DNA of 39,841 nucleotides from a virus (lineage: Duplodnaviria > Heunggongvirae > Uroviricota > Caudoviricetes). Position 1 is the stretch's first letter. The number at the start of each line of letters is the position of its first letter. The position numbers and the translations under genes are program-made. The notes under the pieces are model-generated. The model was not told the DNA's origin. It did not search any database and saw only the letters and a program-made list of their open reading frames with translations. Positions 2,133-39,841 of the stretch are shown here, one piece after another. Location: IMG/VR virus record IMGVR_UViG_2711768002_000004; one strand, given 5' to 3'.

Positions 2133-2299
2133 TGATACCGGTTCATTTGCCTGCCCGGATGGGGAAGCAGGATTGACTGCTCCATAAGCAGCTATATTTC
2201 TGAATACGAAATACTATCCAGCGATTACATATGGCTGGATAGCGGCAAAGATGTTTTCATTAGTGTCAAACCGGCAGAGGACACCACCGGTTTGTATTG

Positions 2300-2554
2300 T
2301 TACATCATGGTACTGTCAGTTCCGGGCTGAGCCGGGTCTGGTTGCTCTGGCTGCGCGTCGGTTTTCGGCTCATTATCAGCATCACTGGCCGCAACTGCTG
2401 GCCCAATAAGTTTTGCCAGCACTTCATCAACGTAAGTGTCGATTTGTGCCTCAAAATCCTTGCGGACCTGCGCTTTCAGCAACTTATTTACTTCACCGGA
2501 ATACAGTGCCTGTTTTACCAGGTCTTCAGTGACGGTGCCTTTAATTTCTGGCAT
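2300..2554 (-). CDS. Hypothetical protein (84 aa), acidic/Pro-rich C-terminus
   Basis: ORF with strong AAGGAGG Shine-Dalgarno upstream of ATG at 2554; part of the cargo locus between gin and com. Confidence 0.55.
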   Translation of the reverse strand: MPEIKGTVTEDLVKQALYSGEVNKLLKAQVRKDFEAQIDTYVDEVLAKLIGPAVAASDADNEPKTDAQPEQPDPAQPGTDSTMM

Positions 2555-2589
2555 GTATATCCTCCTTATGCGGGAATAAAGCCCTGCAA

Positions 2590-2772
2590 TCAGGGCTGGG
2601 TCGGGTCTTTTGGGAGCGGAGTTACCTGCGCTGTTTTACTGAGTTTTTCAGCTGCTGCGTCCTCAATTTTGCGGCGAACATAATTTCTGATGGCCTTATA
2701 ACCACCACTCACCAGATATAACGCACATACTGCCGTGCAGAAATACAATAAAATAAGCTGTAAAAATGTCAT
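2590..2772 (-). CDS. Small membrane protein (60 aa, one predicted TM helix)
   Basis: MTFLQLILLYFCTAVCALYLVSGGYKAIRNYVRRK...; start moved to ATG at 2772 preceded by GGGAGGG. Confidence 0.55.
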   Translation of the reverse strand: MTFLQLILLYFCTAVCALYLVSGGYKAIRNYVRRKIEDAAAEKLSKTAQVTPLPKDPTQP

Positions 2773-2787
2773 TATCCCTCCCAATTA

Positions 2788-2814
2788 TTGACATGGTGTT
2801 GACACCGGTAATAT
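2788..2814 (+). promoter_or_regulatory. Candidate sigma70-like promoter / direct TTGACA repeat
   Basis: TTGACA at 2788-2793 and 2799-2804, TAATAT at 2809-2814 (15-bp spacer from the first hexamer). Suboptimal spacing; could equally be a regulator binding site. Confidence 0.3.
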
Positions 2815-2868
2815 CTGTTAGGTAAAAAGGTGCACTGCATTTTTTGCTTTGGATATAACGATCTTTTT

Positions 2869-2910
2869 GCCGCCGGTTTCTTGTTTTCCCTTACCGGCGG
2901 CATTTTTTTA
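2869..2910 (+). terminator. Rho-independent terminator (9-bp GC stem, 15-nt loop, 7-U tail on plus strand)
   Basis: GCCGCCGGT...ACCGGCGGC followed by ATTTTTTT; lies 7 bp beyond the esterase stop. On the minus strand the hairpin is followed by AAAAAG, so only plus-strand termination looks canonical. Confidence 0.6.
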
Positions 2911-2916
2911 TCCTGC

Positions 2917-4971
2917 TTACGCGTTATTCACTTCCACCACGATACTGTCAATCAGTACCGGGTAAGTCGCATTTTTAGTGATATCGGTCACGCGCAACTT
3001 GTCTGCCGTAAACGTGCCGACCGGAGACTGCGACAGCATGAATGGTGTCCCGTCCTTACCATCAATGACCGGCGTCACCTCAATACTGTTGTTACCGGCA
3101 AAACGGAAGCCCAGCGTATGCCATTCGTTATTAAATGCGCCGAATGACCCCAGCTTCGTGTTCTGCGCCGTGTTTCCTTTGTGATACATCACGTTAAGGT
3201 CTGTGGCATCGCTCTGTACGTAGAACGATGCCAGCAGGTTATGACCGGCATTTCCTTCCAGAGTAACCCCTTGCGGCAGGGCAGAAACCGGCCAGTACAG
3301 CGCCAGTGCGTACTGATTAGCCGTAAGCGCGCCATCGAGTTTAAAACGACAACTGACAAGACCACCTTTACCCAGCAGGTCCGCACCATTACCAGCATCA
3401 TGCTCAAGGTACCAGGGGGCTCTTCCTGTTTCCTTGGTCAGTTTCATTGCCTTACCCCCGCTGGCTCCGGCATCATCCACGATTTGAGCCTTGCCACCTC
3501 CGGCAGCCCAACCCTGTGGTGTCAACCGTCCTTCAGACTCAGATGCCCGGTAAGCAAATAGCGTACTCATCGTCGTGGTGTCTGCGGGTGGCGTGGACGG
3601 TTTTGATGGTGTATCAGGTGACGGCTTCTCATCCGGTGGTGTCACGGTCTGCCCACGCATCAGTTCAGCCGTGCGCCCTGCATGGAGCATAATAGCTGAG
3701 GCCAGACGGTCTGAAATGACGCCCCTGCGTGCCCATGAGCTGAAATGGCTGTCACGCTGTGTCGAAACAAAACTGCCCTGGGTTCGGGATGCTGCACCGT
3801 AATACCCGACAGCCACAATATCCGGGTCTTCCGCCGGAGCATTCGTTGGCGTGCTCTGTCCATTCTCATCCGTCAGGAACGGTACAAAGAAAATTTTCTG
3901 TGCTTCCTTGCCTTTGTAGCCACCGTATACTGCCTCATATTTATCGGTGCCAGCGTTTTTCCAGTAATACGTGGTATCACCGCAAATCCACGGCACCGTG
4001 GTGGCATTTCCACTCACGCACTGCGCAGCAAGCGGAGCCAGGTCAGTTCTGAACTGCTGAACCATGGCCGTGAATAAACTATTATGCTGCTGGCTTCCTG
4101 AGGCAAGGTCTGCCTCTCCCTGCATCCAGACCACAGCCAGAAGTTTGTTTTTCGGGTTTTTCGCCAGCGCGACTTTGGTGCGGCTTACCAGGTCCTGATA
4201 CAGAGGTTTACCGGCCCCCCAGCGTGAAGAATCAGCGGAAGCACCGCTGGCCTCACTGAATGAGCCGTCGGCTCCAGTGGTGAATGCTGACCCGCCACGA
4301 CAACAGGGCACCAGAAGTATCCCGGCATTCTGTGGGATATAGGGAAGCAGTTTTTTGGCAATATGCAACCCCTGACCGACAGTCCCGTACTGGCCTTTTG
4401 CCAGATCAGCTTTCGGGTGGTTTATCCCGCTCATATCCTGAACATCATGCAGGCAGTGGTCTGCCGGAATGATGTCGTTGTATGTACACGACGTACCGTT
4501 GGGCGTTACCGTACTGCGGCGTGCCAGTTGCTTAATGCGTGGGTCCGGGCGGTCAAACGAATCCGGTAACGGCAGCCCCTCGCCGTAGGCCATGCCATTT
4601 GACTGACCCGCGAGAATGACAACAAAGTAATATTCCGGCTCTGAACTGCTGCCATTCGTGCTACCGGAAGGCCCGGCGTTATCCGGTGCATTCCAGTCGG
4701 AGGGCGTGAGCGTTCCGGCCACGTCAGATGTGATTGGAATGATGCCAGTCACGCCTGAACTGGTGATTTCTGCACTGGGATTACCGGATACCGGCATTAC
4801 CCATAATGGCTCTTTCGTGCTGAAGCGGATCACGCAGTCTGCGAAGGTGATCCCCCCTTTATTACCCGAAGGGCGGAAAGGGCTTTCAATAAATGCCACC
4901 GTGCCACCGGCAACCTTGACTGAAAACTCTCCGGGCATGGCGGAGAGCATTTTCCACTTGGAGTCTGACAT
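2917..4971 (-). CDS. Large cargo protein (684 aa) with SGNH / sialate-O-acetylesterase-like (DUF303-type) esterase motifs; putative carbohydrate O-acetyl esterase
   Basis: Motifs YFVVILAGQSNGMAYGEG (GQSN block) and AVVWMQGEAD (QGE block) recalled as typical of the family; Ser/Thr/Pro-rich linker and Gly-rich C-terminal ~250 aa. Sits where Mu has no gene (between gin and com). Confidence 0.6.
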   Translation of the reverse strand: MSDSKWKMLSAMPGEFSVKVAGGTVAFIESPFRPSGNKGGITFADCVIRFSTKEPLWVMPVSGNPSAEITSSGVTGIIPITSDVAGTLTPSDWNAPDNAGPSGSTNGSSSEPEYYFVVILAGQSNGMAYGEGLPLPDSFDRPDPRIKQLARRSTVTPNGTSCTYNDIIPADHCLHDVQDMSGINHPKADLAKGQYGTVGQGLHIAKKLLPYIPQNAGILLVPCCRGGSAFTTGADGSFSEASGASADSSRWGAGKPLYQDLVSRTKVALAKNPKNKLLAVVWMQGEADLASGSQQHNSLFTAMVQQFRTDLAPLAAQCVSGNATTVPWICGDTTYYWKNAGTDKYEAVYGGYKGKEAQKIFFVPFLTDENGQSTPTNAPAEDPDIVAVGYYGAASRTQGSFVSTQRDSHFSSWARRGVISDRLASAIMLHAGRTAELMRGQTVTPPDEKPSPDTPSKPSTPPADTTTMSTLFAYRASESEGRLTPQGWAAGGGKAQIVDDAGASGGKAMKLTKETGRAPWYLEHDAGNGADLLGKGGLVSCRFKLDGALTANQYALALYWPVSALPQGVTLEGNAGHNLLASFYVQSDATDLNVMYHKGNTAQNTKLGSFGAFNNEWHTLGFRFAGNNSIEVTPVIDGKDGTPFMLSQSPVGTFTADKLRVTDITKNATYPVLIDSIVVEVNNA

Positions 4972-5056: not shown

Positions 5057-5629
5057 TCACGGTACTTTTGGTGACGGAGCTGGTGAGGCAGGAAAATAAC
5101 GATAAAGGGTGGAAAGGCCAATATCAAATATCAGTGCGATTTGTTTACGGGACTCGCCATTAGCCAGCAAACGGGCGATTTGCTCCCGCTCTTTCTCTGT
5201 CAGTTTCTGAGGTCTGCCGCCATGACGCCCCTGAGCACGGGCAGCAGCAAGACCCGCGCGTGTACGTTCAATAATGAGTTCCCGCTCCATTTCCGCCAGC
5301 GCGCCCATTATATGGAAAAAGAAACGTCCCATGGGAGTGGATGTATCAATATTGTCCGTAATGCTGCGGAAGTTAACGCCGCGTTGCCGGAGTTCTTCTG
5401 TTAAAAGGACAAGGTGCTGCATACTGCGTCCAAGGCGATCCAGTTTCCAGACCAGCAGGGTATCCCCTGGCCGGAGTCGCTTTAATGCGCGTTTAAGTCC
5501 GGGACGCTCCCTTGTCTTACCGCTTATTCTGTCTTCGAAAAACAGCTCACATCCTGCACATTCCAGCGCATTTCTTTGTAGCGCCGTATTCTGGTCATTT
5601 GTTGACACCCTGATATACCCAATCAGCAT
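5057..5629 (-). CDS. gin: Serine recombinase DNA invertase (Gin/Hin/Pin/Cin family)
   Basis: MLIGYIRVSTNDQNTALQ...VWKLDRLGRSMQHL...MGRFFFHIMGALAEMERELIIERT...STLYRYF: catalytic Ser region and C-terminal HTH of the Gin family; adjacent to the invertible tail-fibre segment. Confidence 0.9.
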   Translation of the reverse strand: MLIGYIRVSTNDQNTALQRNALECAGCELFFEDRISGKTRERPGLKRALKRLRPGDTLLVWKLDRLGRSMQHLVLLTEELRQRGVNFRSITDNIDTSTPMGRFFFHIMGALAEMERELIIERTRAGLAAARAQGRHGGRPQKLTEKEREQIARLLANGESRKQIALIFDIGLSTLYRYFPASPAPSPKVP

Positions 5630-24644: not shown

Positions 24645-26311
24645 TACCAGCCCCCCCGATCAAATTCATGATATGCCTCATCGTCATCACGATAACCGCC
24701 CTCCATTGCCCGCGACCGCTCCTGTAGCGCCTGACAGGCTGATTCATCCAGGATGAAGCCCTCCATGTATGACGCCCGGTTTGCCATACAGAGCGCCACG
24801 GCAAAATCACCATGGCGGCGGGCGTTCGCAGCCGTTGCGTTCTGGTCCTTCGTGCGCCCCTTGTCGATTTGCGGGATACCATTCACTACCTTCACATGGC
24901 GCAAATCATCAAGCGTGGTCTGATGGCGGGCGACGAGGATATTCTGATCTTCAAACTCGGCTTTCAGTTTTGGCATCCACTCGCCGTACCACTTCGGCGA
25001 CAACATCACGCAGTCGATGATGTCCGGGCCAAAGGCCAGCAGTGCGGCCTCTGCCAGATAGCCGCCGTTACCGGTGGCGTCGAACGCCGCACCGACCAGC
25101 GCCGGAACGCGGGTCAGGATGTACATCATCACCTGTTCCTGCTGGGCATACGGCAGGTTGCGCAGCTCCACGCGAAACACCTCGCGCTTTGCCAGGGATT
25201 CGGTGATTTCCAGCAGCACAAAGCAGGACAGGTCACCGGTGCGGGCAAAGTCTTCCCCGAAGCTGAAGCGGGAACGGGGATTTAATTTCTCTAAAAGCGG
25301 TTTTAAATGTTCTTCACACCAGGTTAAAACTTCCGATTCACGCAGCCATGCGGCACGGCTGATGAAGTTGTCCGGGGCTTCAAACGTCAGAATCGGGATG
25401 TCGCGGATCATCGCCATTTCAATAAGCGCGTGGGGGATATAGGCACCGCCGGATTTTTTCGGGATACAGCCGTATTCCTCGTCGGCATCCTCACGGGTCG
25501 GGGCGTTTTTGTAGAGATCATCACGCCATTTCTGCTCGCTTTCCGGTGACCATTCCTGATCGGTGACGTAACAGATACGACGGTACAGCCCGTCCGCAAT
25601 GGCATCATCCAGGGTTATGCGGTGGACGCTGTAATCCTTGCGCCCCTCGCGGGCTTCCTGAATGTACTGATTAAACAGATTATCGACGCCGTTATGCGTG
25701 GAGATAATACGCACGCGCGCGCCCCACATAGTGAGCGCCATTGCCGCCTTGAGAAGCTCATCCAGTGACTCGTGGAACGCGGCTTCATCAATCACCACAT
25801 CCCCCTGAAGGCCGCGCAGGTTTGACGGACGGGAAGACAATGCCTGAATTTTGAATCCACTGTTCGGAAAGCGGATCATGTAGGTCAAAATTTCTTCTTT
25901 TTTATCCCGATCCCAGAATGTCTGCTCATACACATCAGCATCTGCCAGCTGGTTAAAGGCACGGGAGAACAGCGCGCAGGCAGAAATATATTCCAGCGCC
26001 ATCTCCTGCTTTGATCCCACATAAAACACATTGCGGCCACCACGACGCTTCGGTTTTGCAGCAGTAATGACGTTACGCCCGGCTTCCGCCCAGGTAAGAC
26101 CGGTGCGGCGGGATTTCTCCGCGATGCAGACCTGACTTTCATCTGCAAACCAGCGGGCCTGATAATCCAGAAACACCGGCATATCACCGGGCAAATCAAG
26201 GCTGTCCGGCACATCCACGCCCAGCAGGGCTTTTTCACCTGACAGATCAATTTTGCGGGGAGGCGTCATTTGCATCAGTGAAGGCGACGTTTCTCTGGCT
26301 TTGTTCATCAT
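24644..26311 (-). CDS. Terminase large subunit (Mu gp28-like)
   Basis: 555 aa; position and size; start overlaps the stop of the upstream small gene. Confidence 0.85.
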   Translation of the reverse strand: MMNKARETSPSLMQMTPPRKIDLSGEKALLGVDVPDSLDLPGDMPVFLDYQARWFADESQVCIAEKSRRTGLTWAEAGRNVITAAKPKRRGGRNVFYVGSKQEMALEYISACALFSRAFNQLADADVYEQTFWDRDKKEEILTYMIRFPNSGFKIQALSSRPSNLRGLQGDVVIDEAAFHESLDELLKAAMALTMWGARVRIISTHNGVDNLFNQYIQEAREGRKDYSVHRITLDDAIADGLYRRICYVTDQEWSPESEQKWRDDLYKNAPTREDADEEYGCIPKKSGGAYIPHALIEMAMIRDIPILTFEAPDNFISRAAWLRESEVLTWCEEHLKPLLEKLNPRSRFSFGEDFARTGDLSCFVLLEITESLAKREVFRVELRNLPYAQQEQVMMYILTRVPALVGAAFDATGNGGYLAEAALLAFGPDIIDCVMLSPKWYGEWMPKLKAEFEDQNILVARHQTTLDDLRHVKVVNGIPQIDKGRTKDQNATAANARRHGDFAVALCMANRASYMEGFILDESACQALQERSRAMEGGYRDDDEAYHEFDRGGW

Positions 26312-26556
26312 GCTTTACCTGTCAGAATGCTTTTGATTCGGGACTCAAGCTCTTCAGTCATCACGTCCACGCCGCTCAACTCATCAGTGGCAGCCTCTGC
26401 CAGCAGCGAATGCAGTTGTTCCAGGGATATTTCCCCGGCAATGCTGAGTTCAGTCAACTCACGACATACCTTTATGGTTTCAGGAGGTAACTGTGTTGCA
26501 AGACTGAATGCTTTCTGATGGGCACTGCTCATCAGTGAGCGGTTATCTGTTGCCAT
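26308..26556 (-). CDS. Small protein (82 aa) whose C-terminus repeats the C-terminal motif of the upstream gp27-like protein
   Basis: Strong GGAGGTG Shine-Dalgarno; ...TDELSGVDVMTEELESRIKSILTGKA versus upstream ...TDELRGVDGMSEQIEFRIRQMLLGKA. Confidence 0.55.
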   Translation of the reverse strand: MATDNRSLMSSAHQKAFSLATQLPPETIKVCRELTELSIAGEISLEQLHSLLAEAATDELSGVDVMTEELESRIKSILTGKA

Positions 26557-27150: not shown

Positions 27151-27441
27151 TTACCCCCTTGCGCGTGGTTTCTTCACACCCGGAACGGTGGCGCGGCCTT
27201 CCGCCACATCCTGACCCCGGCCGGTCAGTTCAGCGATGAAATAACCGTTAACAAGCGTGCGCTTACGCACCAGTCCCTGCTCGGCAAGCCAGGCAATGTG
27301 GGTATGAACGGTGTCGCGGGACACGCGGTGACCGTAATCATCCAGGCAGTCCTGAAGCACGGATTCGCCCAGTTCGCCGTTGTAATCCGCCAGCGACCGC
27401 AGAATGACAAGACGCTGATCTTCAGTAATGAAATCACTCAT
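27151..27441 (-). CDS. Hypothetical protein (96 aa; Mu gp26 position)
   Basis: AAGGAAAAAA Shine-Dalgarno upstream of ATG. Confidence 0.5.
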   Translation of the reverse strand: MSDFITEDQRLVILRSLADYNGELGESVLQDCLDDYGHRVSRDTVHTHIAWLAEQGLVRKRTLVNGYFIAELTGRGQDVAEGRATVPGVKKPRARG

Positions 27442-27745
27442 TGTGTTTTTTCCTTACAGCCTGCTCCAGCAGCAGTTCGTTCTGATGGGAGACGGATTTC
27501 AGGGTGGCATTGGTGGCCTTAAGCTCACCGCGCAGGGTGGTGATTTCGATATTGAGTCTGTTCACCTCCTGCTGCGTGGGCAGGCCGGAAATCCGGCTCT
27601 CCACCCGCTCAACCCGGTCGGAGAGTTTTTCAAAGGCCTCGCGGGGGACAAAGGTTTTGCGCATCAGCGCCATGAAGATCCCCCCGGCTGTGGCCGTTGC
27701 CGACAGGATCGGCACGACATAATCTTTAACGATGCTGACCCACAT
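27434..27745 (-). CDS. Membrane protein with N-terminal TM helix and coiled coil (candidate lysis regulator; position of Mu gp25 'releasin')
   Basis: MWVSIVKDYVVPILSATATAGGIFMALM... then coiled-coil; GGAGG upstream of ATG. Function inferred from position only. Confidence 0.5.
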   Translation of the reverse strand: MWVSIVKDYVVPILSATATAGGIFMALMRKTFVPREAFEKLSDRVERVESRISGLPTQQEVNRLNIEITTLRGELKATNATLKSVSHQNELLLEQAVRKKHNE

Positions 27746-27953
27746 GACCGGCCTCCATGATGTTCTGGCAGTTCACACAACGGATGGCATCCGGCACGGC
27801 AACCAGACGGGCAGCCGGAATGTCACCCCCGCAGTCCGCGCATACACGCCTGCCCGGTGTCTCCGCCACCCGGCGCTTACGTGTCAGCCGGTCACAAAGG
27901 GCGCGTTCTGTTGCACGCTCCATGACTGCCTGAGCACAATCTGAATCATCCAT
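27726..27953 (-). CDS. TraR/DksA-family C4 zinc-finger protein
   Basis: ...CADCGGDIPAARLVAVPDAIRCVNCQ...; start re-picked at ATG 27953 (AAGGAAAAAGG upstream). Confidence 0.7.
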   Translation of the reverse strand: MDDSDCAQAVMERATERALCDRLTRKRRVAETPGRRVCADCGGDIPAARLVAVPDAIRCVNCQNIMEAGHVGQHR

Positions 27954-27963
27954 ACCTTTTTCC

Positions 27964-28335
27964 TTACTTCGTCTTTCCTGCCGGAACAGCAGTCGTTCCG
28001 GCCATATCAGTAAATTCATGCTGTCGCTGTGTCTCCAGACGGCGGATGCTGGCCTTGTCCACGTTGCAGTTTTTAATCACCGCCAGCAGTTGCAGGTTGT
28101 AAGTGACCGATGCACCAAACGTGAACGGCTGCGGCGCGGGAGGGACCAGGCAGTCAGCCAGCCATTCAGCGGGGATCGGCACCGGCTTCACCGGCACGTA
28201 TTTCACAGACGGCCCGCCGCACCCGGTCAGCCACATCATCAGGCACAGGCACAGCGGCAGCAGGCACCGTTGCCAGTGACCGGCGGACAATGCTCTGCTG
28301 TTCCTCGCTGTGCTGCATGTTCTGCTGTTTTTCAT
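27964..28335 (-). CDS. Outer-membrane spanin (o-spanin, Rz1-like lipoprotein), overlapping the i-spanin gene in another frame; start uncertain
   Basis: Hydrophobic stretch then lipobox-like LTGC followed by a Pro-rich sequence (PVKPVPIPAEW...PPAPQP); overlapped gene architecture typical of spanins. Confidence 0.5.
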   Translation of the reverse strand: MKNSRTCSTARNSRALSAGHWQRCLLPLCLCLMMWLTGCGGPSVKYVPVKPVPIPAEWLADCLVPPAPQPFTFGASVTYNLQLLAVIKNCNVDKASIRRLETQRQHEFTDMAGTTAVPAGKTK

Positions 28336-28516
28336 TCGTGGCCGCCTTGCTGATTTGTGAAATGAGTTGCAGGGTGCGTTGCTGGTTTGCCAGCACCAGA
28401 CGGGCTTCGTCCCGTTCACGCACAAGCACATGATTATTGTCCTCAAGGCGCTGCGTCTTCTGGTGCATTCCCCATACCACGGCAGCCAGCACGCTCATCA
28501 CCCCCAGCGCCGCCAT
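28166..28516 (-). CDS. Inner-membrane spanin (i-spanin, Rz-like)
   Basis: Start re-picked at ATG 28516 (GGAGG upstream): MAALGVMSVLAAVVWGM + coiled coil QKTQRLEDNNHVLVRERDEARLVLANQQRTLQLISQ. Confidence 0.55.
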   Translation of the reverse strand: MAALGVMSVLAAVVWGMHQKTQRLEDNNHVLVRERDEARLVLANQQRTLQLISQISKAATNEKQQNMQHSEEQQSIVRRSLATVPAAAVPVPDDVADRVRRAVCEIRAGEAGADPR

Positions 28517-28628
28517 ACAGCCTCCGGCAATCAGGGCCGGTAAGGGATTGTTCACCGCAGACACAGCACACCCCGCAGCAGCACAACGGCACACAGCAGC
28601 GCAATCATGAGCGGTCGCCAGAAGCGGT

Positions 28629-29129
28629 TCAGACTTTCGGCAAATCGTAACGACATAACCATTCATCCGCCGAACGGCGGGCCTCAAGACCGGGGAGTTT
28701 TACCCCCTTTGAATAAATCCAGCGGATATACTGCTTACAGGACGCGGGCATCTGCCCGGCATTGATAAGGCGCAGGAGCGTGGAGTTGCGAAAGTTCGTT
28801 TCACCGGCCCAGAAAATCCAGGAGGCCAGCGCCACCGTCTGACCACGGGTAAGCGGCACCTGAACATGACGATCGATAGCCGCAAAGGCCCATTTCATGT
28901 CCTTTTCCAGCAGCTCCAGACACTCTTCATCAGTTTTTGTCATCCCCGGTTTCACATCCGGGCCGGTATGGCCGTAACAGATGGTGGGGGTGCCGGTGGG
29001 ATCAATGTACGTGGTGTTTTCTTTCCCTTCCCAGTAGCCGGTGTAGTGCGTGGCAATGGTGAACGTCCCGGCTCCGGCCAGAACAAGGGCAATCAGCTTT
29101 TTACGCAGGGGTGCGGGGAGTTTTGGCAT
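28629..29129 (-). CDS. SAR-endolysin (lysozyme with N-terminal signal-anchor-release domain)
   Basis: N-terminal hydrophobic LIALVLAGAGTFTIA, then YWEGKENTTYIDPTGTPTICYGHTG (Glu-Asp-Thr catalytic spacing of T4/lambda-type lysozymes). Confidence 0.8.
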   Translation of the reverse strand: MPKLPAPLRKKLIALVLAGAGTFTIATHYTGYWEGKENTTYIDPTGTPTICYGHTGPDVKPGMTKTDEECLELLEKDMKWAFAAIDRHVQVPLTRGQTVALASWIFWAGETNFRNSTLLRLINAGQMPASCKQYIRWIYSKGVKLPGLEARRSADEWLCRYDLPKV

Positions 29130-29200
29130 TGTTACGCTGTCTCATGGTGTTCTCTGAGTCAGCGTAACCGTGAGGAAAAGGGGGCAGGATTTGCGGAATA

Positions 29201-29623
29201 TCAGAAAAGCCGTGGCTGCGTGCGTTCCTGATGCAGGCGACGCTGGTTGCGGATAACGGAGTAAATCTGCGTCTCTGACATCTGGTAGTGGCGGCGCAGG
29301 GTTTCAATTTTTTCGCCCTGGCTCCAGCGGGAAAAAATTTCATTATTGCGCAGTTCGGTGAAAAGGGATTCACCGACCGGGAGATAATAACCACGCCCGC
29401 CCATGTACCCGGCCTGTGCGGCTGCAACCTTACGGGCAAGCATTCCCGCCTGAGCAGGTTCAATCCCCTGACGGTGCAGTTCAGCACTGATCACATCAAC
29501 CAGGTCCCGCAGCGTGCCGGGCCAGTTCTTTTTCAGCTCATCATCAGGAATATCATCCAGACGGTCAATCAGCGCGTGCAGCTGTTCGCTGTCACCAAAC
29601 ATGCTCATCTGTGTTTCAGCCAT
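29201..29623 (-). CDS. Mor/C-family transcriptional activator (single copy; positioned like Mu C, directly upstream of the lysis genes)
   Basis: 140 aa; C-terminal ...GGRGYYLPVGESLFTELRNNEIFSRWSQGEKIETLRRHYQMSETQIYSVIRNQRR matches the Mor/C family pattern as recalled. Confidence 0.8.
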   Translation of the reverse strand: MAETQMSMFGDSEQLHALIDRLDDIPDDELKKNWPGTLRDLVDVISAELHRQGIEPAQAGMLARKVAAAQAGYMGGRGYYLPVGESLFTELRNNEIFSRWSQGEKIETLRRHYQMSETQIYSVIRNQRRLHQERTQPRLF

Positions 29624-30276: not shown

Positions 30277-30516
30277 ATGTCAGATATAAAAAATGCACTT
30301 GATGTTGCCGCATTCACAATGGCTGGAAATCTTATGGTAACCCTGTTCGATAAGGGGCTGATTTCCCGTGAGGAGGCAATACATATTATCAATCTCGCTC
30401 AAAAAAACTCTACCCCGGAAAATGCAGAAGATATCCAGGATGGCTCATATATTAATACCGACTGGCATTTCGACAATCTCCGGGCCTGTATGGGGATTAC
30501 CGCTGAAAAAGATTAA
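30277..30516 (+). CDS. Hypothetical protein (79 aa), plus strand, convergent with and overlapping the next gene by about 20 nt
   Basis: AAAGGAAAAA Shine-Dalgarno 6 nt upstream of ATG; AT-rich; the only well-supported plus-strand gene in the early region. Confidence 0.5.
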   Translation: MSDIKNALDVAAFTMAGNLMVTLFDKGLISREEAIHIINLAQKNSTPENAEDIQDGSYINTDWHFDNLRACMGITAEKD

Positions 30517-30784
30517 AAATTTTTGCATAATGTTCAGATGTAAGAATTGCTGAACCATCAACACCGAGCCTACGGCGAACGTATTCCTCGCGGGCTATTT
30601 TATTATCCAGAGATACAGCATCCTTAATCAGGTTAATCTCCCGCTCCATTATCAAAAGGGCTTCTCTGGCTGCAAGATTTTCTTTTATCGCATATTCGAT
30701 AATGTCCCGCATACGTTCAAGCATGCCGATTTTAGCCAGTTCTTCGTCGATAGATTTAGGCGCAAATTTGATTTCTTTTTCCAT
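30497..30784 (-). CDS. Hypothetical protein (95 aa, helical, charged)
   Basis: Start re-picked at ATG 30784 (GAGGA upstream; ORF track start is a GTG at 30799): MEKEIKFAPKSIDEELAKIGMLERMRDIIEYAIKENLAAREALLIMEREINLIKDAV... Confidence 0.5.
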   Translation of the reverse strand: MEKEIKFAPKSIDEELAKIGMLERMRDIIEYAIKENLAAREALLIMEREINLIKDAVSLDNKIAREEYVRRRLGVDGSAILTSEHYAKIFNLFQR

Positions 30785-30785
30785 A

Positions 30786-30929
30786 TTATTCATCCTCACA
30801 ATTTATACATGCAGTGTCGTCGCCCATATCGCAGTGGTTACATTTTATCTCACCACAATGTGGGCACTCTTTCAGATACTCCGGGTCCTCATTTCCACAG
30901 GTGGGACATTCAACAATTTGCTCATCCAT
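30786..30929 (-). CDS. Small zinc-ribbon protein (47 aa, four CxxC pairs); not in the ORF track because shorter than 60 aa
   Basis: Hand translation MDEQIVECPTCGNEDPEYLKECPHCGEIKCNHCDMGDDTACINCEDE*; ATG overlaps the stop of the upstream gene. Confidence 0.5.
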   Translation of the reverse strand: MDEQIVECPTCGNEDPEYLKECPHCGEIKCNHCDMGDDTACINCEDE

Positions 30930-31254
30930 TATGTATCCCCTGTAATTCCGGCAAGGCCGAAAGATGGCACCAGTGCGTCACCTGTCCGTCCTCATCTTCA
31001 AGGCAGGCTCCGGTTTCTTCATCAATAAAAAAGCCTTCATACCCCATATGGCCGATGCGCAGTTCCTGTTGGTCACCATACTGAACAATCAGCACGACAG
31101 CCTCCATATCAGGCGGAAATGCGTCATCCAGTGAATGCCAGGGATAACCGCGCAAATCCCCGAAATAAACGCCGGTCAGCGTTCCGCCACAGAGCGGCAT
31201 TCCGGCGGCACACACAAGAGGTTCATCTGATTCAACAAATAAGGTCGTTATCAT
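30922..31254 (-). CDS. Hypothetical protein (110 aa)
   Basis: ORF in the early operon, translationally coupled to neighbours. Confidence 0.5.
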   Translation of the reverse strand: MITTLFVESDEPLVCAAGMPLCGGTLTGVYFGDLRGYPWHSLDDAFPPDMEAVVLIVQYGDQQELRIGHMGYEGFFIDEETGACLEDEDGQVTHWCHLSALPELQGIHNG

Positions 31255-34658: not shown

Positions 34659-34886
34659 TTAGCTGACTTGTTTCGCACCAACAGAACGGCATATTCCGCT
34701 GTAAACTTCTGTCGCACCTTCGCGATCAAGTCCGGCAGATATCACCATTCGTGTGCGGTCATTAAATTCAAAAAGTAAATCGCCACATTCTTTATTTTCG
34801 GCCAGTGAAATCACCTTCACGTTATCGAAATTAACCAGGTAAAAGCGTCCGTAAATATCAGGAATATTAAATACCGCCATAATCAC
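34659..34886 (-). CDS. Small early protein directly downstream of B (position of Mu kil)
   Basis: 75 aa; positional analogy only. Confidence 0.45.
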   Translation of the reverse strand: MIMAVFNIPDIYGRFYLVNFDNVKVISLAENKECGDLLFEFNDRTRMVISAGLDREGATEVYSGICRSVGAKQVS

Positions 34887-35824
34887 ACCTGTGAGAGTAA
34901 TTCAGGGTTGGTATAAACCTCTTTAAAGGCCGCATTAATATGTTTTTCTGTCAGCGCCGCGCCTTCACCGCTGGCGGTGAGCCACGCCTGGTTAAGCGTA
35001 TGTGTCAGAACGCGTAACGCTCCCGGCTTTTCAGCGATAGCCTGCATGACGGCCAGCTCGGCCTCACCACTGATCCCCCACGCCATGGCAATGGCCAGCA
35101 CATCCGCCTTTTTGGCCTTGCGAAGTTGTTTTGTACGGGCAAGACGGCTGAACAGGCGCGATAAATCATCAAAGGCGCGGCGTCCACCTTTAAACAATCC
35201 GCGCGGGTTACCAATAAGCACCATCCCGATCCCCGTGGCGTCCTGAATTGCCCGGAGTTGCTCCAGACCGTCAATACCAAGATGATCCGCCTCATCCACA
35301 ATCACCAGTCCACGCGTTCCCATCAGGCGACGGCGGATGGCGCGGGATAATGCCCCTTTGTTCGCGCGGGTGTAATCAATCCCCAGCGCATCGGCCAGCT
35401 CCAGCAGACACTCCGTGACGCTGGAGTGCGCGGGTGACAGGGTGATCATCCAGGTGTTTGGTTGCTCCTGGCAGTAATTACGGGCAGTGGCCGTTTTACC
35501 CACACCCGGTACGCCCACAATAACGTTAATACAGCCCATCAGGCGAACCGCCTGAAACAGTGCGCGCAGCTCCTGGACTGTCTGAGTTTCCACAAACTGC
35601 GGCGGTTCCGGCAGTGCGCTTTGTTTATTCCAGTTCTCATACCAGGAGCGCAGGGAAGCAGCCACAGCAGCGTTATCGCCTTTATATTTTCCCTTACGGA
35701 AAGCCGATAATGTGCCGTCGGAAATTCCCGCCTCTCTGGCGATGGCATACTGCGTCAGTACGCCGCCATCAATAAGTTCATCAATGGTCTTGATTACATC
35801 GTTAATATCGGTCATATTATTCAC
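34883..35824 (-). CDS. B: Transposition protein B (MuB-like ATP-dependent target DNA activator)
   Basis: 313 aa; P-loop VGVPGVGKTATARNY, DEADHLG, and end-to-end similarity to Mu B as recalled (PEPPQFVETQTV..., KPGALRVL...). Confidence 0.9.
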   Translation of the reverse strand: MNNMTDINDVIKTIDELIDGGVLTQYAIAREAGISDGTLSAFRKGKYKGDNAAVAASLRSWYENWNKQSALPEPPQFVETQTVQELRALFQAVRLMGCINVIVGVPGVGKTATARNYCQEQPNTWMITLSPAHSSVTECLLELADALGIDYTRANKGALSRAIRRRLMGTRGLVIVDEADHLGIDGLEQLRAIQDATGIGMVLIGNPRGLFKGGRRAFDDLSRLFSRLARTKQLRKAKKADVLAIAMAWGISGEAELAVMQAIAEKPGALRVLTHTLNQAWLTASGEGAALTEKHINAAFKEVYTNPELLSQV

Positions 35825-35897: not shown

Positions 35898-37985
35898 TCA
35901 GGCCAGCGGATCACTTTCTTTTAATTTCGCTTCGAGCAGTTGCAATCCCCGCTGGAAATTACGCTCGTATTCTTCATCAGGTTCATCGTCAGCGACCGGT
36001 TGCTGAACGGTCACCGTATTACCCACAGGGCGGTATATGTTTTCCAGCCAGGGCTCCTGCGGCTTGTGCTCCAGCACGTTGACAACCTCATCCTCGGCAT
36101 CACGGATTTTTTCCTCTGCGCGTTTACGCATGCCTTTAAGGCGCTGCTGCTGTTTGTAGTATTCCGCGCTGACAGGGAAGGCTTCGCGTTTATTGCCGTC
36201 CCATACCGCCTCGCAAATCACGCTGCCATCCGGGCGGCGCACGGTAATTCGTTCGGCATCATGAATGTCATAGCTGATAAGTACCTTACGGCCATGCTCG
36301 TCACGCAGCTCGGGCGCGTAGTAAATATTATTCAGCCAGCGTATTTCACAGCGTCTTACAGGGCGCTCCACCATCGGCCGGAACATATCCCGCAGTTCAA
36401 CATCGGACAGCCATTCAATTTCCGTGTCCTCTTCCGCCAGGCGTTTTTTTCTGAACTCCGCCGGGCTGTAATGTTTACCGTTCGGCTTCATGGGTAATTC
36501 ATCGTGCGGCCGGTTGTTGTACCACTCAACACCGTCACGAATGGCATCAATCAGTTCAGACCAGGACGGTAAATCACGCATCGCTGACTGCTGCCGGGCG
36601 TTCAGCCGTTTGCCCTGTTGCAGGGCACTGAATGCCGAGCGTAAATCGCGGTTGGTTTTACGTAACGTCTCGCGATCTGCTCCTTTCCCGAAATAGGTGC
36701 GGTATTTACGGGCTATGCGCATCGGTAATGTGCGGTTAAGCCGTTCGATAATGCCCCGTCCCTGCGGATTACCGGCAATCCCTGTCGGGTGATTAATCCC
36801 CAGTCGTGGCAGTATCCCCACAATCTCCTTATCCAGGACGTCGGCGGTTTCCCCGGAGCCATTATCCGAGTAATACAGAAACGGTTTGCCATGATGGCGA
36901 ATACCGTGCTGTATGGCACCGGCTACGGCGAAAACATTTTCAGCCAGGTCAAGGCTCCAGCCCACCACAAAGCGCGTGCCACCGTCGATAACAAAGGTCA
37001 CTTCCGGTGCGAATGGCCGCCCGTGAACCGGGTGCGCGCATTTCAGCTTCATGCCGTGACCGTCACCAATCCAGACATAATTCACCGGCATTCTGGACCA
37101 GTCGCGGCGCGTGAATCCCTCAAGCTGACGGTATTCACTGCCAGTTACCCGGCCTTTTTGTTTCACCACTTCCGGCAGTTTCTTCATTGCGCGGCGAATG
37201 GTGTCATAAGAGGGCATGATATCGAGCATATAAGGCTCATCAGCGTGCCGGTGCTGCCATTCAGCAACAAAATCCTCGTAAGCCTCGGTCATTGGTCGGC
37301 CGTTTGACTGGCGATACTGCGCCAGAAATTCGGGCAGCCAGTTAATATCTTCGGCTTTTATTTCCTGGCGTTTACCCGGTGCCAGTAAAAGCAGGCGTTC
37401 AGCGGCGTTCTGTGCCTTGTTAAAGGCCGCAATCCAGCGTTTCAGCGTGATTTCACTCAACGCGCGGCTGTTTCCCTTTTTGGCGTTCGCCGTCTCAACC
37501 ATTGCCACAATGCGCTCGTCCAGTTGTGATCGTGCCAGGCTGTTAACGAGGAACCGGATAGCTTTAGCGCAGCTGAAACCGGGTTGTTGCGTGAATTTCA
37601 GCACCTCACTGACGATCGCAATGCGTGCGTCTGCCACCTGGCGCTGGTTTTCAGTCAGGGCATTGAGGCGTTCGACCATCAGTTGTGGTGATCCGCGATA
37701 TGCCTCCACCGCATCAACCACGGCAGACGAGCGTCTGGCCTTTGTCACCACCGGAGCCGGTGATTCATCGGCTTTTTGCGTCATCAGTTGCAGGGCATAA
37801 CGTTCGCGTAATGCCTGCTGTGTCACTTCAGGTAAACAGTCAATGCTGTATTCAAAACCTTTAGCGCCTTTCTTGCGGCGTCTGCTGGTTTCGCTGGTTG
37901 CATACTTCCTGATTGAATAGCGAACGCCTTGCTCCGTTCCCGGCATCCCCGGTAATCCAACCAGTTCTTTAACTGAAGCAAACAT
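35898..37985 (-). CDS. A: DDE transposase (MuA-like)
   Basis: 695 aa; N-terminal VSPKE..LPG-like opening (ASVKELVGLPGMPGT) and position directly after ner. Confidence 0.9.
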   Translation of the reverse strand: MFASVKELVGLPGMPGTEQGVRYSIRKYATSETSRRRKKGAKGFEYSIDCLPEVTQQALRERYALQLMTQKADESPAPVVTKARRSSAVVDAVEAYRGSPQLMVERLNALTENQRQVADARIAIVSEVLKFTQQPGFSCAKAIRFLVNSLARSQLDERIVAMVETANAKKGNSRALSEITLKRWIAAFNKAQNAAERLLLLAPGKRQEIKAEDINWLPEFLAQYRQSNGRPMTEAYEDFVAEWQHRHADEPYMLDIMPSYDTIRRAMKKLPEVVKQKGRVTGSEYRQLEGFTRRDWSRMPVNYVWIGDGHGMKLKCAHPVHGRPFAPEVTFVIDGGTRFVVGWSLDLAENVFAVAGAIQHGIRHHGKPFLYYSDNGSGETADVLDKEIVGILPRLGINHPTGIAGNPQGRGIIERLNRTLPMRIARKYRTYFGKGADRETLRKTNRDLRSAFSALQQGKRLNARQQSAMRDLPSWSELIDAIRDGVEWYNNRPHDELPMKPNGKHYSPAEFRKKRLAEEDTEIEWLSDVELRDMFRPMVERPVRRCEIRWLNNIYYAPELRDEHGRKVLISYDIHDAERITVRRPDGSVICEAVWDGNKREAFPVSAEYYKQQQRLKGMRKRAEEKIRDAEDEVVNVLEHKPQEPWLENIYRPVGNTVTVQQPVADDEPDEEYERNFQRGLQLLEAKLKESDPLA

Positions 37986-38949: not shown

Positions 38950-39185
38950 TAGCATTAGCCCGCATTTTGCACTATATCGAGTATTTCGCATTGTTTGGAA
39001 CGCCTTAAAAGACTAAAACCACAGTATCAAATGAGTTGCCGATTTTATAATAAATGACTAATTATTGCACAATCGGTATCAAATAGACCTTATCCGCACA
39101 TCTAGCCATCACCTGTTTTATTTCAGTATCTTACAGGTGATTTCACCTCCTTTCACTAAACCCCTTGTCGGTATCAAATGATTCA
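38950..39185 (-). repeat. Prophage left end with three transposase-binding-like direct repeats
   Basis: (C)GGTATCAAAT at 39023-39032, 39074-39084 and 39169-39179; on the phage strand the element would begin 5'-TGAATCATTTGATACCG. Confidence 0.6.
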
Positions 39186-39506
39186 CCTGGTTATATGTCG
39201 CCAGTCGATACCTTCCAGCAGCATCGCCAGCTGCGCCTGTGTAAGGAACACTTTGCCATCACGGGCTGACGGCCAGGCGAAGCGCCCACGCTCCAGCCGT
39301 TTGGTCAGGAGGCACAGTCCGTCACTGGTGGACCACAGCAGTTTAACCTGACTGCCGCTGCGGCCCCGGAAAATGAAAACATGGCCGGACATGGGATCGT
39401 CTTTCAGCGCCGTCTGTACTTTCGCAGCCAGGCCGTTGAAGCCATTTCTCATATCGGTGATACCGGCAACCAGCCAAATTTTGATCCCGGAAGGTAACGG
39501 GATCAT
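39183..39506 (-). CDS. tnpB: IS66-family TnpB (orf2); 3' end apparently fused to the prophage terminus
   Basis: MIPLPSGIKIWLVAGITDMRNGFNGLAAKVQTALKDDPMSGHVFIFRGRSGSQVKLLWSTSDGLCLLTKRLERGRFAWP...; stop codon TGA (39185-39183) coincides with the putative TG terminus of the prophage. Confidence 0.85.
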   Translation of the reverse strand: MIPLPSGIKIWLVAGITDMRNGFNGLAAKVQTALKDDPMSGHVFIFRGRSGSQVKLLWSTSDGLCLLTKRLERGRFAWPSARDGKVFLTQAQLAMLLEGIDWRHITR

Positions 39507-39841
39507 CGCTTCAGTTCCTGTATCAGCAGAGTCAGGAGCTTTTCGCTGACATTGCCATTGAAGCGGAGCGTCCCGTGCCGGAACGTTACCTCACAGCTGA
39601 TACTGAGGGTTTTCGGGTCCTCTGCGAGCGATTCTGGCTGTTCGGCAGCTGCATCGAGAGTCACAGGAAGTAGCTGGGGGCTCTCTGAAGAAGGTAATAG
39701 CTGAGGTGTACTGGCAATAGCGGACACTACCATTTGTTCTTTTTTTAAGCAGCCATCTGATGATATTTTTCCCTGAAGGCTGCCGGGGAGATATTCCCCA
39801 GACGAGAGTGACGACGCTGACGATTGTAGAAAATCTCAATG
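39503..39841 (-). CDS. tnpA: IS66-family TnpA (orf1), partial; frame open to the window end
   Basis: Upstream of and overlapping tnpB; ...EKLLTLLIQELKR C-terminus; reading frame has no stop up to 39841. Confidence 0.55.

Follow-up and report, generated by a model that had tools for sequence, protein, structure and literature searches.

The genes at positions 27434-29129, on the minus strand, form the module for late lysis in what appears to be an intact Escherichia coli prophage of the Mu-like (transposable) kind. Lysis by this prophage most likely proceeds as in phage Mu, where the system is holin-less, a reading to which we assign a probability of about 0.75. The cassette is a further case of the Mu-type lysis already described by Chamblee et al. 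(2022, mBio, PMC9239132) and is ordinary apart from an ORF of 36 codons that has never been annotated. The window, by which we mean the whole 39,841-nt stretch of viral DNA analysed, also contains MuA- and MuB-like genes and genes encoding GemA, Mor and a Mu-type portal.

Organization of the lysis cassette

All five elements that an earlier note, made from the sequence alone, had reported for this region are present, in a compact operon with synteny and homology to Mu gp22-gp25. A Mor/C-family activator gene is followed by genes for the endolysin, the i-spanin, the o-spanin, a small zinc-ribbon protein, a DUF2730 protein, a winged-helix gp26, gp27 and the large terminase, the order of Mu genes 21-28, so that a C/Mor activator lies upstream, and a gp26-gp27-terminase block downstream, of both cassettes. 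The same note had asked for an alignment with Mu gp22-gp25. In pairwise BLAST comparisons with seven Mu proteins, the best match of each lysis protein was its Mu counterpart, with identities of 40% for the endolysin (gp22), 25% for the i-spanin (gp23), 41% for the o-spanin (gp23.1) and 33% for the DUF2730 protein (gp25); all four lysis proteins thus have homologues in Mu, at 25-41% identity. The two phages differ in that Mu genes 22 and 23 overlap directly, whereas the additional 36-codon ORF lies between their counterparts here, and in that the middle-operon genes 18-20 of Mu are missing here, with no counterpart of gp19 or gp20 found in the window, and there is a single Mor/C-type activator.

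The activator gene (29201-29623, minus strand; PF08765 Mor, E 7e-31; phrog_532 late transcriptional activator, E 1e-44) is directly upstream of the cassette and has no Mor/C-family paralogue in the window; as the sole activator of this type, and from its position, it is presumed to activate the late lysis promoter. A terminator-like hairpin (29689-29666) precedes it. Between this gene and the endolysin gene there are 71 nt (29130-29200, minus strand) at the position of Mu Plys, and by that equivalence the region would be the promoter from which the activator turns on a late transcript beginning with the endolysin. The region contains a partly conserved motif, CCGCAAAnCC...TTAC, found in 4 of 5 relatives, and no sigma-70 consensus, as would be expected of an activator-dependent promoter. 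At the other end, the gene for a winged-helix protein like Mu gp26 (27151-27441, minus strand; NF050184 VpaChn25_0724 family, E 3e-34; phrog_436), in the position of Mu gp26, overlaps the stop codon of the DUF2730 gene by 8 nt; it is included as context only and is not known to take part in lysis.

The endolysin

The first gene (28629-29129, minus strand) encodes a GH24 endolysin of 166 aa (PF00959, E 1e-36; phrog_7) in which the catalytic E-D-T motif noticed earlier is identified as the triad E34-x8-D43-x5-T49, within the GH24 domain. The hydrophobic N-terminus had been proposed to be of the SAR type, and judged by hydropathy and composition this is borne out. Residues 12-30 (LIALVLAGAGTFTIATHYT) form a weakly hydrophobic helix with a mean Kyte-Doolittle value of 1.39, where genuine transmembrane segments in the cassette (i-spanin and 36-codon ORF) score 2.2-2.5; 10 of the 19 residues are G, A, S or T, and K3, R9, K10 and K11 precede the helix. 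With these features the protein would behave as a SAR endolysin, exported by Sec and tethered, uncleaved and inactive, to the inner membrane through its SAR helix, which R9, K10 and K11, on the cytoplasmic side, may serve to keep in the membrane.

Homology to Mu gp22 begins at residue 1 (40% identity over 159 aa), and adjacent basic residues precede the SAR helix in both proteins (K6/K7 in Mu, RKK here). In Mu, K6/K7 confer dependence of gp22 on gp25, and a run of six glycines in the gp22 SAR helix is suspected to contribute to it (PMC9239132). The helix here has 2-3 glycines, as against six in gp22, and the cytoplasmic N-terminus, at 11 residues and with a charge of +4, is longer than that of Mu. 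Among solved structures the best match is PDB 3hde, which we take to be the SAR endolysin R21 of phage 21; the alignment covers residues 5-161, and so the N-terminus and SAR helix as well as the catalytic domain. Both proteins begin MP..LRK followed by a G/A-rich helix, and the SAR helix here resembles that of R21 more than that of gp22. R21 depends on a pinholin, S21, which drives its release by depolarising the membrane; no two-helix pinholin gene like that of phage 21 is present in the window.

The spanin pair

The i-spanin (28166-28564, minus strand; 132 aa; phrog_214 Rz-like spanin, E 3e-29), labelled hypothetical in RefSeq, has an N-terminal transmembrane segment (mean Kyte-Doolittle 2.22) and a helical periplasmic domain. 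Its true start is the GTG at 28564, at which relatives with an 84% identical endolysin have an aligned ATG. A longer i-spanin beginning at ATG 28666 or TTG 28687 was considered and rejected, as this ATG is ACG in many relatives and the additional upstream sequence translates into what looks like an out-of-frame product rich in Cys and Ala (pN/pS 1.87).

The o-spanin (27964-28335, minus strand; 123 aa; PF23793 LysC, E 4e-17; phrog_3001, E 8e-41) is a lipoprotein whose gene begins within the i-spanin gene in the +1 frame, overlaps it for 170 nt and continues for 202 nt beyond its end. Overlapping spanins in different frames, with an LTGC lipobox, had been described beforehand, and both features are confirmed (28335-27964 against 28564-28166, frame offset 1). 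The lipobox Cys39 is followed by Gly; nearly all relatives have a lipobox, and in none is the residue after Cys an Asp. The mature part of 85 aa contains 10 Pro, and in lipobox, mature length, proline content and gene overlap the o-spanin is like that of Mu. The basic signal peptide is unusually long (38 aa) and conserved in relatives, as is the start codon, ATG 28335; the start assigned in RefSeq (PGAP) is too late. An inner subunit with an N-terminal transmembrane helix and coiled coil, paired with a Pro-rich lipoprotein encoded in the +1 frame, is likewise the arrangement of lambda Rz/Rz1 and P2 LysB/LysC, from which this pair differs in the length of the o-spanin signal peptide and in having genes that overlap rather than one embedded in the other. 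Membership of these families argues strongly that the i-spanin, in the inner membrane, and the o-spanin, in the outer, would fuse the two membranes once the cell wall has been degraded.

A TraR-family protein in the late operon

The next gene, in the position of Mu gp24, encodes a C4 zinc-finger protein of 75 aa (27726-27953, minus strand; start ATG 27953) that scores well above the cut-offs for TIGR02419 (69.6 against 59.7 bits) and PF01258 (44.7 against 24.9 bits; E 1e-11). It aligns over its full length with F-plasmid TraR (PDB 5w1s, 6n57), with D2xxD5xA7 (D2-D3-S4-D5-C6-A7) placed on D3xxD6xA8 of TraR, and its zinc finger is C38xxC41-x17-C59xxC62. The DxxDxA motif and the C4 finger are functionally important in TraR-type proteins (PMC9239242). 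In size (75 aa, against 73 aa), DxxDxA motif, C4 finger and short C-terminal segment the protein resembles F-plasmid TraR and lambda Orf73, and like them it probably binds the secondary channel of the host RNA polymerase; it differs in the location of its gene within a late lysis/packaging operon, the characterised phage homologues being encoded in early/regulatory regions (PMC9239242).

The earlier note had regarded this gene as a TraR/DksA-type zinc finger embedded in the lysis cassette. The family assignment holds, but the gene is not an intrusion; a zinc ribbon adjoins DUF2730 in all 4 Mu-like lineages examined, Mu with its gp24 included. The protein is probably a constant companion of DUF2730 and not an effector of lysis. 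Mu gp24 retains only the zinc ribbon; Pfam does not detect it as TraR, a profile comparison aligns the zinc ribbon only (69% probability), and on these grounds we treat gp24 as a degenerate positional counterpart and not as a member of the TraR family.

The holin question and a 36-codon ORF

The earlier statement that there is no canonical holin is upheld, mainly by a hydropathy scan that covered every ORF of 30 aa or more and in which no other non-overlapped membrane protein was found in the late region, and also by family searches that gave no holin match among ~30 proteins compared with Pfam or among the cassette proteins compared with PHROGs and NCBIfam. Neither Mu nor this phage has a recognizable holin. 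Searching the window by tblastn with lambda S, S21, P2 Y and P1 LydA also returned nothing, a result to which we give little weight as these query sequences may be inexact. A plus-strand ORF of 108 aa with two hydrophobic segments (30702-31028) was dismissed as spurious; three minus-strand ORFs, lying end to end, cover it, and one of these encodes a clear Cys-rich zinc-ribbon protein.

The only small candidate with a transmembrane helix in the lysis cluster is the 36-codon ORF (MVMSLRFAESLNRFWRPLMIALLCAVVLLRGVLCLR; 28552-28662, minus strand), located between the endolysin and i-spanin genes and overlooked by the earlier note and by all gene callers; it is absent from the RefSeq annotation. The encoded peptide has a basic N-terminus followed by a single hydrophobic helix (mean Kyte-Doolittle 2.51) with an Arg inside the hydrophobic stretch. 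Its length is identical, and its frame and hydrophobicity are maintained, in 40 of 40 loci, these being the loci, from E. coli and Citrobacter genomes and from viral and metagenome contigs, that passed a length-constrained motif search. There are 24 distinct DNA versions among the 40, with no indels, and the ORF is kept even on contigs with a DUF2730 protein that is only 64% identical. The ORF overlaps the 3′-end of the endolysin gene by 34 nt and the start of the i-spanin gene by 13 nt, and this shared sequence, at the tail of the endolysin and at the ribosome-binding site and start of the i-spanin, explains part of its conservation. RNA structure was considered as a cause of the conservation at this junction and rejected, as the predicted fold is no better than those of shuffled sequences (z = +0.46).

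The hydrophobic core is preserved only in the ORF's own frame, in which pN/pS for the stretch is 0.56, compared with 1.87 in the i-spanin frame. Variable sites at codon positions 1, 2 and 3 number 11, 6 and 15 in 28 sequences, and 12, 9 and 15 in the 24 unique versions that include the most distant, with p about 0.1 in the latter case. The signal is in the right direction but not significant, and the coding status of the ORF is therefore regarded as probable; the evidence is suggestive, not conclusive, and the membrane peptide is probably translated. No family match was found in Pfam, PHROGs or NCBIfam, nor any match in an exhaustive HMMER search of 1.84 billion representative proteins. In a tblastn search of a phage collection, the ORF was matched only in two records of Stx phages with an inserted Mu-like phage.

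Such a peptide, predicted from the late lysis transcript between endolysin and spanins, the usual neighbourhood of a holin, with one strongly hydrophobic segment behind a basic N-terminus and with its length, frame and hydrophobicity maintained in the 40 loci, could be a lysis factor of a new kind, either a minimal trigger that depolarises the membrane or a timer on SAR-endolysin release, acting with or upstream of DUF2730. We regard this as a speculative suggestion, with odds clearly against it. Were the peptide a minimal holin, a pinholin-like depolariser or an antiholin-like timer that gates the endolysin, with DUF2730 assisting or doing something else, the holin-less reading itself would be wrong. 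The pinholin dependence of R21, the presumed nearest solved relative of the endolysin, is in keeping with this stronger version, as is the precedent of Lcc6, a small transmembrane protein unrelated to holins that a phage with a SAR endolysin requires for lysis (bioRxiv 10.1101/2024.01.23.576932). It is nevertheless unlikely. Mu lyses its host without any such ORF, the peptide matches no holin family, and at 36 aa, with an Arg in its hydrophobic stretch, it is to our knowledge shorter than all characterised holins. The codon-position signal falls short of significance, and the overlaps noted above account for some of the conservation. We therefore retain the Mu-like, holin-less reading, in which release of the endolysin would depend on the DUF2730 protein.

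The DUF2730 protein as a releasin homologue

The 103-aa protein that the earlier note had placed at the position of the Mu releasin (27434-27745, minus strand) is encoded four annotated genes downstream of the endolysin, five if the 36-codon ORF is counted, and its assignment is supported by synteny, by a BLASTP alignment of 94 aa with Mu gp25 at 33% identity and by a match to PF10805 (E 1e-22; 80.4 bits, cut-off 24.9) in which residues 6-97, including the transmembrane helix, align with profile positions 3-101 of 102. A tblastn search of the phage collection gave E 5e-10 to Mu. The transmembrane segment (residues 10-28, mean Kyte-Doolittle 1.8) is followed by M-R-K, a junction conserved as MR[KR] in relatives, with R29 invariant and K or R as the next residue. 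An N-terminal transmembrane helix followed by an R[RK] junction is common to this protein and gp25, which belongs to type I of the three DUF2730 groups, and the RK/RR junction motif of gp25 has been highlighted (PMC9239132). An AlphaFold2 model (mean pLDDT 72.6) has helices at residues 2-30, 35-52 and 58-102, which would correspond to a transmembrane helix at the N-terminus and a cytoplasmic domain made of two helices; by the positive-inside rule, the topology would be N-out, C-in.

[quoted passage not shown] By homology to gp25, the DUF2730 protein would similarly free the SAR helix from the bilayer, after which the endolysin would refold and degrade the cell wall. K10 and K11 ahead of the SAR helix provide the sequence prerequisite for such releasin dependence.

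Many SAR endolysins release spontaneously at a low rate, and self-release of this endolysin is the basis of a different reading in which DUF2730 has a non-lytic function, linked for example to gp26/gp27/terminase packaging or to the TraR-like protein. The DUF2730 gene is indeed always beside a zinc-ribbon gene and the gp26-gp27-terminase block, also in phages with soluble endolysins such as Klebsiella phage Kp4866-3, where it accompanies a non-SAR enzyme. Co-occurrence of DUF2730 proteins with soluble, non-SAR endolysins has been reported previously (PMC9239132) and suggests that proteins of this family may serve a different or wider function. In addition, the SAR helix here lacks the glycine run of gp22, and the cytoplasmic domain of the DUF2730 protein has a net charge of +3, unlike that of gp25 (-1), and so fits poorly with an 'acidic microenvironment' model. 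The sufficiency of gp22 and gp25 in Mu, the lysis delay without gene 25 and the activity of gp25 on unrelated SAR endolysins argue against this reading, as do the adjacent dibasic pair, the feature that made gp22 dependent on gp25, and the transmembrane helix and MR[KR] junction common to the DUF2730 protein and gp25. Spontaneous release with a non-lytic DUF2730 thus seems quite improbable, and release by a DUF2730 releasin remains the preferred explanation.

Distribution and integrity of the prophage lineage

An intact cassette, defined as at least 80% identical over at least 80% of its length, is present in 231 of 5426 complete E. coli genomes (about 4%), at different chromosomal sites, which fits recent transposition. 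Relatives include one Citrobacter genome and proteins labelled Salmonella and Serratia; a search of genome contigs with the endolysin recovered a single locus, in Citrobacter braakii. There is no cultured phage of this lineage in the phage collection searched, in which the only matches were regions described as an inserted Mu-like phage within Stx-phage records. This could be taken to indicate a decaying, non-inducible prophage with genes that are no longer lytic, but such decay is very improbable as no ORF of the cassette is disrupted, the flanking genes (transposase, MuB, portal, terminase, tail) retain their full length, the cassette recurs at differing sites in so many E. coli genomes, and substitutions in the endolysin tail are mostly at third codon positions (24 of 35).

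Implications for Mu-type lysis

The Mu releasin system was described in 2022 (Chamblee et al., PMC9239132), and the candidate models for its mechanism are a protease, charge neutralisation and a transient channel. The lineage described here is a natural variant in which such models can be tested, as its endolysin lacks a glycine run and has a longer, more basic tail, and its releasin domain is net basic. Its late operon also encodes a complete TraR-type protein bearing the motif that reprogramming of RNA polymerase requires. Existing annotations of these prophages call for correction of the late o-spanin start in RefSeq, of the 'hypothetical' i-spanin and of the missing 36-codon ORF. This ORF, alone among the elements, could alter the interpretation of this branch of 'holin-less' cassettes. 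If the peptide is a lysis factor, then a widespread Mu-like branch would not be truly holin-less, and the peptide, being very small and genetically tractable, would offer a means of studying the exit of SAR helices from the membrane.

The lysis cassette and its relationship to phage Mu

All the lysis-cassette elements listed in the earlier note were confirmed in the minus-strand region 27434-29129, and the gene order in and around it is that of genes 21-28 of phage Mu (AF083977), namely activator, endolysin, i-spanin, o-spanin, zinc-ribbon protein, DUF2730 protein, winged-helix gp26, gp27 and large terminase. When the lysis proteins were compared by BLAST with seven Mu proteins, the best match of each was its Mu counterpart, with 40% identity for the endolysin (gp22), 25% for the i-spanin (gp23) and 41% for the o-spanin (gp23.1). 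The 103-aa protein that had been placed at the position of the Mu releasin has gp25 as its best match (33% identity; E 1.6e-17 in this small database of seven). As documented for Mu (Chamblee et al., PMC9239132), gp22 is a SAR endolysin and gp23 and gp23.1 make up the spanin pair. There is no holin in Mu: DNP triggers no lysis, and gp19, gp20 and gp25 are non-lethal. Freeing gp22 requires the membrane-tethered DUF2730 protein gp25, the 'releasin', a dependence that comes from adjacent basic residues, K6 and K7 (PMC9239132).

The endolysin (166 aa; 28629-29129, minus strand; PF00959, E 1e-36) has an E34-x8-D43-x5-T49 triad and a weakly hydrophobic, G/A/S/T-rich N-terminal stretch, in agreement with its assignment as a SAR endolysin. 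The N-terminus reads MPKLPAPLRKK followed by LIALVLAGAGTFTIATHYT, a stretch in which 10 of 19 residues are G, A, S or T and the mean hydropathy is just 1.39; the true transmembrane helices of the i-spanin and of the small ORF described below have mean values of 2.2-2.5. Among solved structures, the closest relative is PDB 3hde (the phage 21 SAR endolysin R21), and the alignment extends from residue 5 through the hydrophobic N-terminus. Residues K10 and K11 (plus R9) directly precede the SAR helix and are the counterpart of K6/K7 in gp22. The SAR helix differs from that of gp22 in having no glycine run, and the cytoplasmic tail is longer, with a charge of +4, both of which are relevant to the release mechanism.

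The DUF2730 protein (103 aa; 27434-27745, minus strand) matches PF10805 (1e-22) over residues 6-97 and finds Mu gp25 by tblastn of a phage collection (E 5e-10). An AlphaFold2 model with helices at residues 2-30, 35-52 and 58-102 (mean pLDDT 72.6) fits the transmembrane helix and coiled-coil-like domain that had been read from the sequence. The N-terminal helix is followed by M-R-K, corresponding to the RR/RK junction motif of gp25 stressed by the authors of PMC9239132, and this junction is kept in eight aligned relatives. The cytoplasmic domain has a net charge of +3, in contrast to -1 in gp25, a difference that, for this lineage at least, speaks against a model based solely on an 'acidic microenvironment'.

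A single Mor/C-type gene is present in the window, a search of the window identified no counterparts of Mu gp18-20, and terminator-like hairpins are located ahead of GemA (30248-30229, minus strand) and between GemA and the activator (29689-29666, minus strand). Together, these features suggest a two-step regulatory cascade, simpler than the early/middle/late cascade of Mu.

Spanin genes and their translation starts

The predicted overlapping spanin pair was confirmed. The i-spanin gene (phrog_214, 3e-29) starts with GTG at 28564 on the minus strand, and the o-spanin gene (PF23793 LysC, 4e-17) starts within it, in the +1 frame, with ATG at 28335, overlaps it by 170 nt and continues for 202 nt past its end. 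The o-spanin has an LTGC lipobox, with Gly following the Cys, and a mature part of 85 aa with 10 prolines, numbers identical to those for Mu gp23.1. Defined mechanically, the i-spanin ORF opens at TTG 28687 and contains an ATG at 28666. Both were ruled out as starts: this ATG is ACG in many relatives, and the region upstream of GTG 28564 has a pN/pS of 1.87 in the i-spanin frame. GTG 28564 aligns with ATG in relatives that have an 84%-identical endolysin, and is also the RefSeq start. Translation of the o-spanin has to begin at ATG 28335. In all relatives that yielded an o-spanin, this Met is 38-39 residues ahead of the lipobox Cys; the RefSeq start, five residues before the Cys, was ruled out as the signal peptide would then be missing. 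At 38-39 residues, about 20 of them in a basic n-region, the signal peptide is unusually long, and relatives keep this length.

A TraR-type zinc-finger protein

The TraR-type gene starts with ATG at 27953 (minus strand), preceded by a strong AAGGA ribosome-binding site. Its assignment to the TraR/DksA family was confirmed, with PF01258 passed and a score of 69.6 bits for the TraR-specific TIGR02419 (cut-off 59.7). Alignment with F-plasmid TraR (PDB 5w1s, 6n57) extends over the full length of the protein and places D2xxD5xA7 on the D3xxD6xA8 motif of TraR; the protein also has a CxxC-x17-CxxC finger. In TraR and its phage homologues, including lambda Orf73, the motif and finger enable binding in the RNA-polymerase secondary channel and shutdown of ribosomal promoters (Gopalkrishnan et al., PMC9239242). 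Characterised phage TraR homologues have an early/regulatory location (PMC9239242), whereas this gene is in a late operon. The gene is not an intruder in the cassette: a DksA/TraR-type zinc-finger gene recurs beside DUF2730 in other phages, directly upstream of DUF2730 and gp26 in both Shewanella phage MuM16-2 and Klebsiella phage Kp4866-3. Mu gp24 has the same CxxC-x17-CxxC ribbon and aligns to the profile (hhalign, 69% probability) but has no DxxDxA motif and is undetected by Pfam, whereas the protein described here has both the motif and a Pfam match. As gp22 and gp25 are sufficient for Mu lysis (PMC9239132), the zinc-ribbon protein is unlikely to be a lysis effector.

Prophage setting and accessory regions

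The window contains a Mu-like transposable prophage that is nearly complete and lies on the minus strand. Repressor and Ner-like genes (~38-38.9 kb) are followed by a long ORF in the position of the MuA transposase (35898-37985), a MuB-like gene (34883-35824), Gam, Gp11-like and GemA genes, the Mor/C-family activator (29201-29623), the lysis cassette, gp26-, gp27- and large-terminase-like genes and then long head/tail-region ORFs, all on the minus strand. An invertase gene (5057-5629) and com/mom (1627-691) precede the right end of the prophage at ~683, which is adjoined by an N run at ~540-690. IS66-family pieces are present at both window ends, a transposase C-terminal fragment (191-538) recognised by eye at one, and an Orf2/TnpB gene (39183-39506) and probable Orf1 (39503-39733) at the other, and the prophage in this genome may be inserted inside an IS66 element. 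An 82-aa ORF (phrog_30922; 26308-26556, minus strand) separates the gp27-like small-terminase gene from the large-terminase gene. The final 32 residues of gp27 match phrog_30922 as well, so the ORF appears to have arisen by partial duplication of the gp27 C-terminus. A low-GC (44%) stretch at 30277-31254, between GemA and the early genes, has small ORFs with no family match, one of which (30786-30929) encodes a Cys-rich zinc-ribbon-like protein of 47 aa. The prophage of strain 102651, otherwise 99.6% identical, differs at the equivalent location and has a DUF2513 gene there, and this stretch appears to be a variable slot for accessory genes.

A three-gene module (2218-4971, minus strand) is located within the prophage between the invertase gene and com/mom. 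It encodes a 684-aa NanS-like esterase with SASA and DUF6645 domains (2917-4971), a DUF1378 protein with an N-terminal transmembrane helix (2590-2784; a 64-aa ORF, 60 aa from its ATG) and a DUF826 protein (2300-2554). In Stx/lambdoid phages, this trio is usually closely followed by the holin S gene; in the prophage, no holin gene follows it. The DUF1378 protein shares its architecture with Lcc6 of Shewanella LambdaSo, which has 65 aa and an N-terminal transmembrane helix and is essential to lysis (bioRxiv 10.1101/2024.01.23.576932).

Holin search and a conserved small ORF

No canonical holin had been seen in the cassette, and searches of ~30 proteins against Pfam, and of the cassette proteins against PHROGs and NCBIfam, also gave no holin family match. 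In a six-frame scan of the prophage for hydrophobic 19-residue windows in every ORF of at least 30 aa, the non-overlapped hits beyond the cassette proteins were only the accessory-region DUF1378 protein and a 36-codon ORF at 28662-28552 (minus strand). This small ORF spans the interval from the endolysin stop codon (28629) to the i-spanin start codon (28564), overlaps the two genes by 34 and 13 nt, respectively, and encodes MVMSLRFAESLNRFWRPLMIALLCAVVLLRGVLCLR, a peptide with a single hydrophobic helix. RefSeq annotation lacks it, and it has no matches in Pfam, PHROGs, NCBIfam or 1.84 billion representative proteins.

A length-fixed motif search, which could recover only 36-codon versions, identified the small ORF in 40 of 47 sequence sources (46 loci and the window), always with 36 codons. 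The carriers include a Citrobacter braakii locus, a contig with a protein labelled Serratia by NCBI and contigs with a DUF2730 protein just 64% identical. The seven sources with no match are Mu, one unrelated phage, two that end before the region, one that ends within it, one with a frameshift that fuses the small ORF to the endolysin and one error-ridden assembly. In the related contig L027 (IMGVR_UViG_2526164665_000023), a frameshift around 3826-4097 joins the endolysin frame to that of the small ORF, resulting in an endolysin with a C-terminal hydrophobic tail; this fusion may have arisen by sequencing error or may be naturally occurring.

There are no indels in the small ORF across 24 distinct DNA versions, while the i-spanin gene just downstream has a 6-nt indel. 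W-R-P, the hydrophobic core and R-G-x-L-W-L are kept, with the R and P codons changing synonymously, and the 12-codon core has a mean hydropathy of 2.6-3.6 in the small-ORF frame only. For the 20 non-overlapping codons, the small-ORF frame has the lowest pN/pS (0.56), compared with 0.79 for the endolysin frame and 1.87 for the i-spanin frame. The RNA folds no better than shuffled sequence, and a 64-nt non-coding spacer would be odd at this position as the other junctions in the operon are overlaps or gaps of ≤10 nt. Constraints from the endolysin tail, and from the ribosome-binding site and start of the i-spanin gene, account for part of the conservation, and the codon-position bias across all sequences is not significant (12/9/15 variable sites, p about 0.1). 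We place the probability that the small ORF is a translated gene at about 0.6. That the small membrane peptide serves as a minimal holin-like trigger or timer is unlikely; in Mu, genes 22 and 23 overlap directly and there is therefore no equivalent.

Proposed lysis pathway

From its position, the Mor/C-type activator would switch on a late transcript beginning at the endolysin gene, for which no sigma-70 consensus was found. Homology and sequence features predict that the endolysin would be exported, that its SAR helix and basic anchor would keep the enzyme inactive in the inner membrane, that the DUF2730 releasin would free it, resulting in cell wall degradation, and that the spanin complex would then fuse both membranes. 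DUF2730 is also found with soluble endolysins (PMC9239132; Klebsiella phage Kp4866-3), as expected if the endolysin released itself and DUF2730 had another job, an arrangement slightly less probable still than a holin-like small peptide. Of 5426 complete E. coli genomes, 231 carry the cassette region, with 80-100% identity; in the phage collection, it is present only as 'Mu-like phage inserted' in two Stx-phage records. That the cassette is an inactive relic is very improbable. The interpretation in the earlier note is supported. The cassette is a further example of a known, recently described kind of lysis system, and one that is common in E. coli. The sole new item of the cassette is the conserved, unannotated 36-codon membrane ORF.
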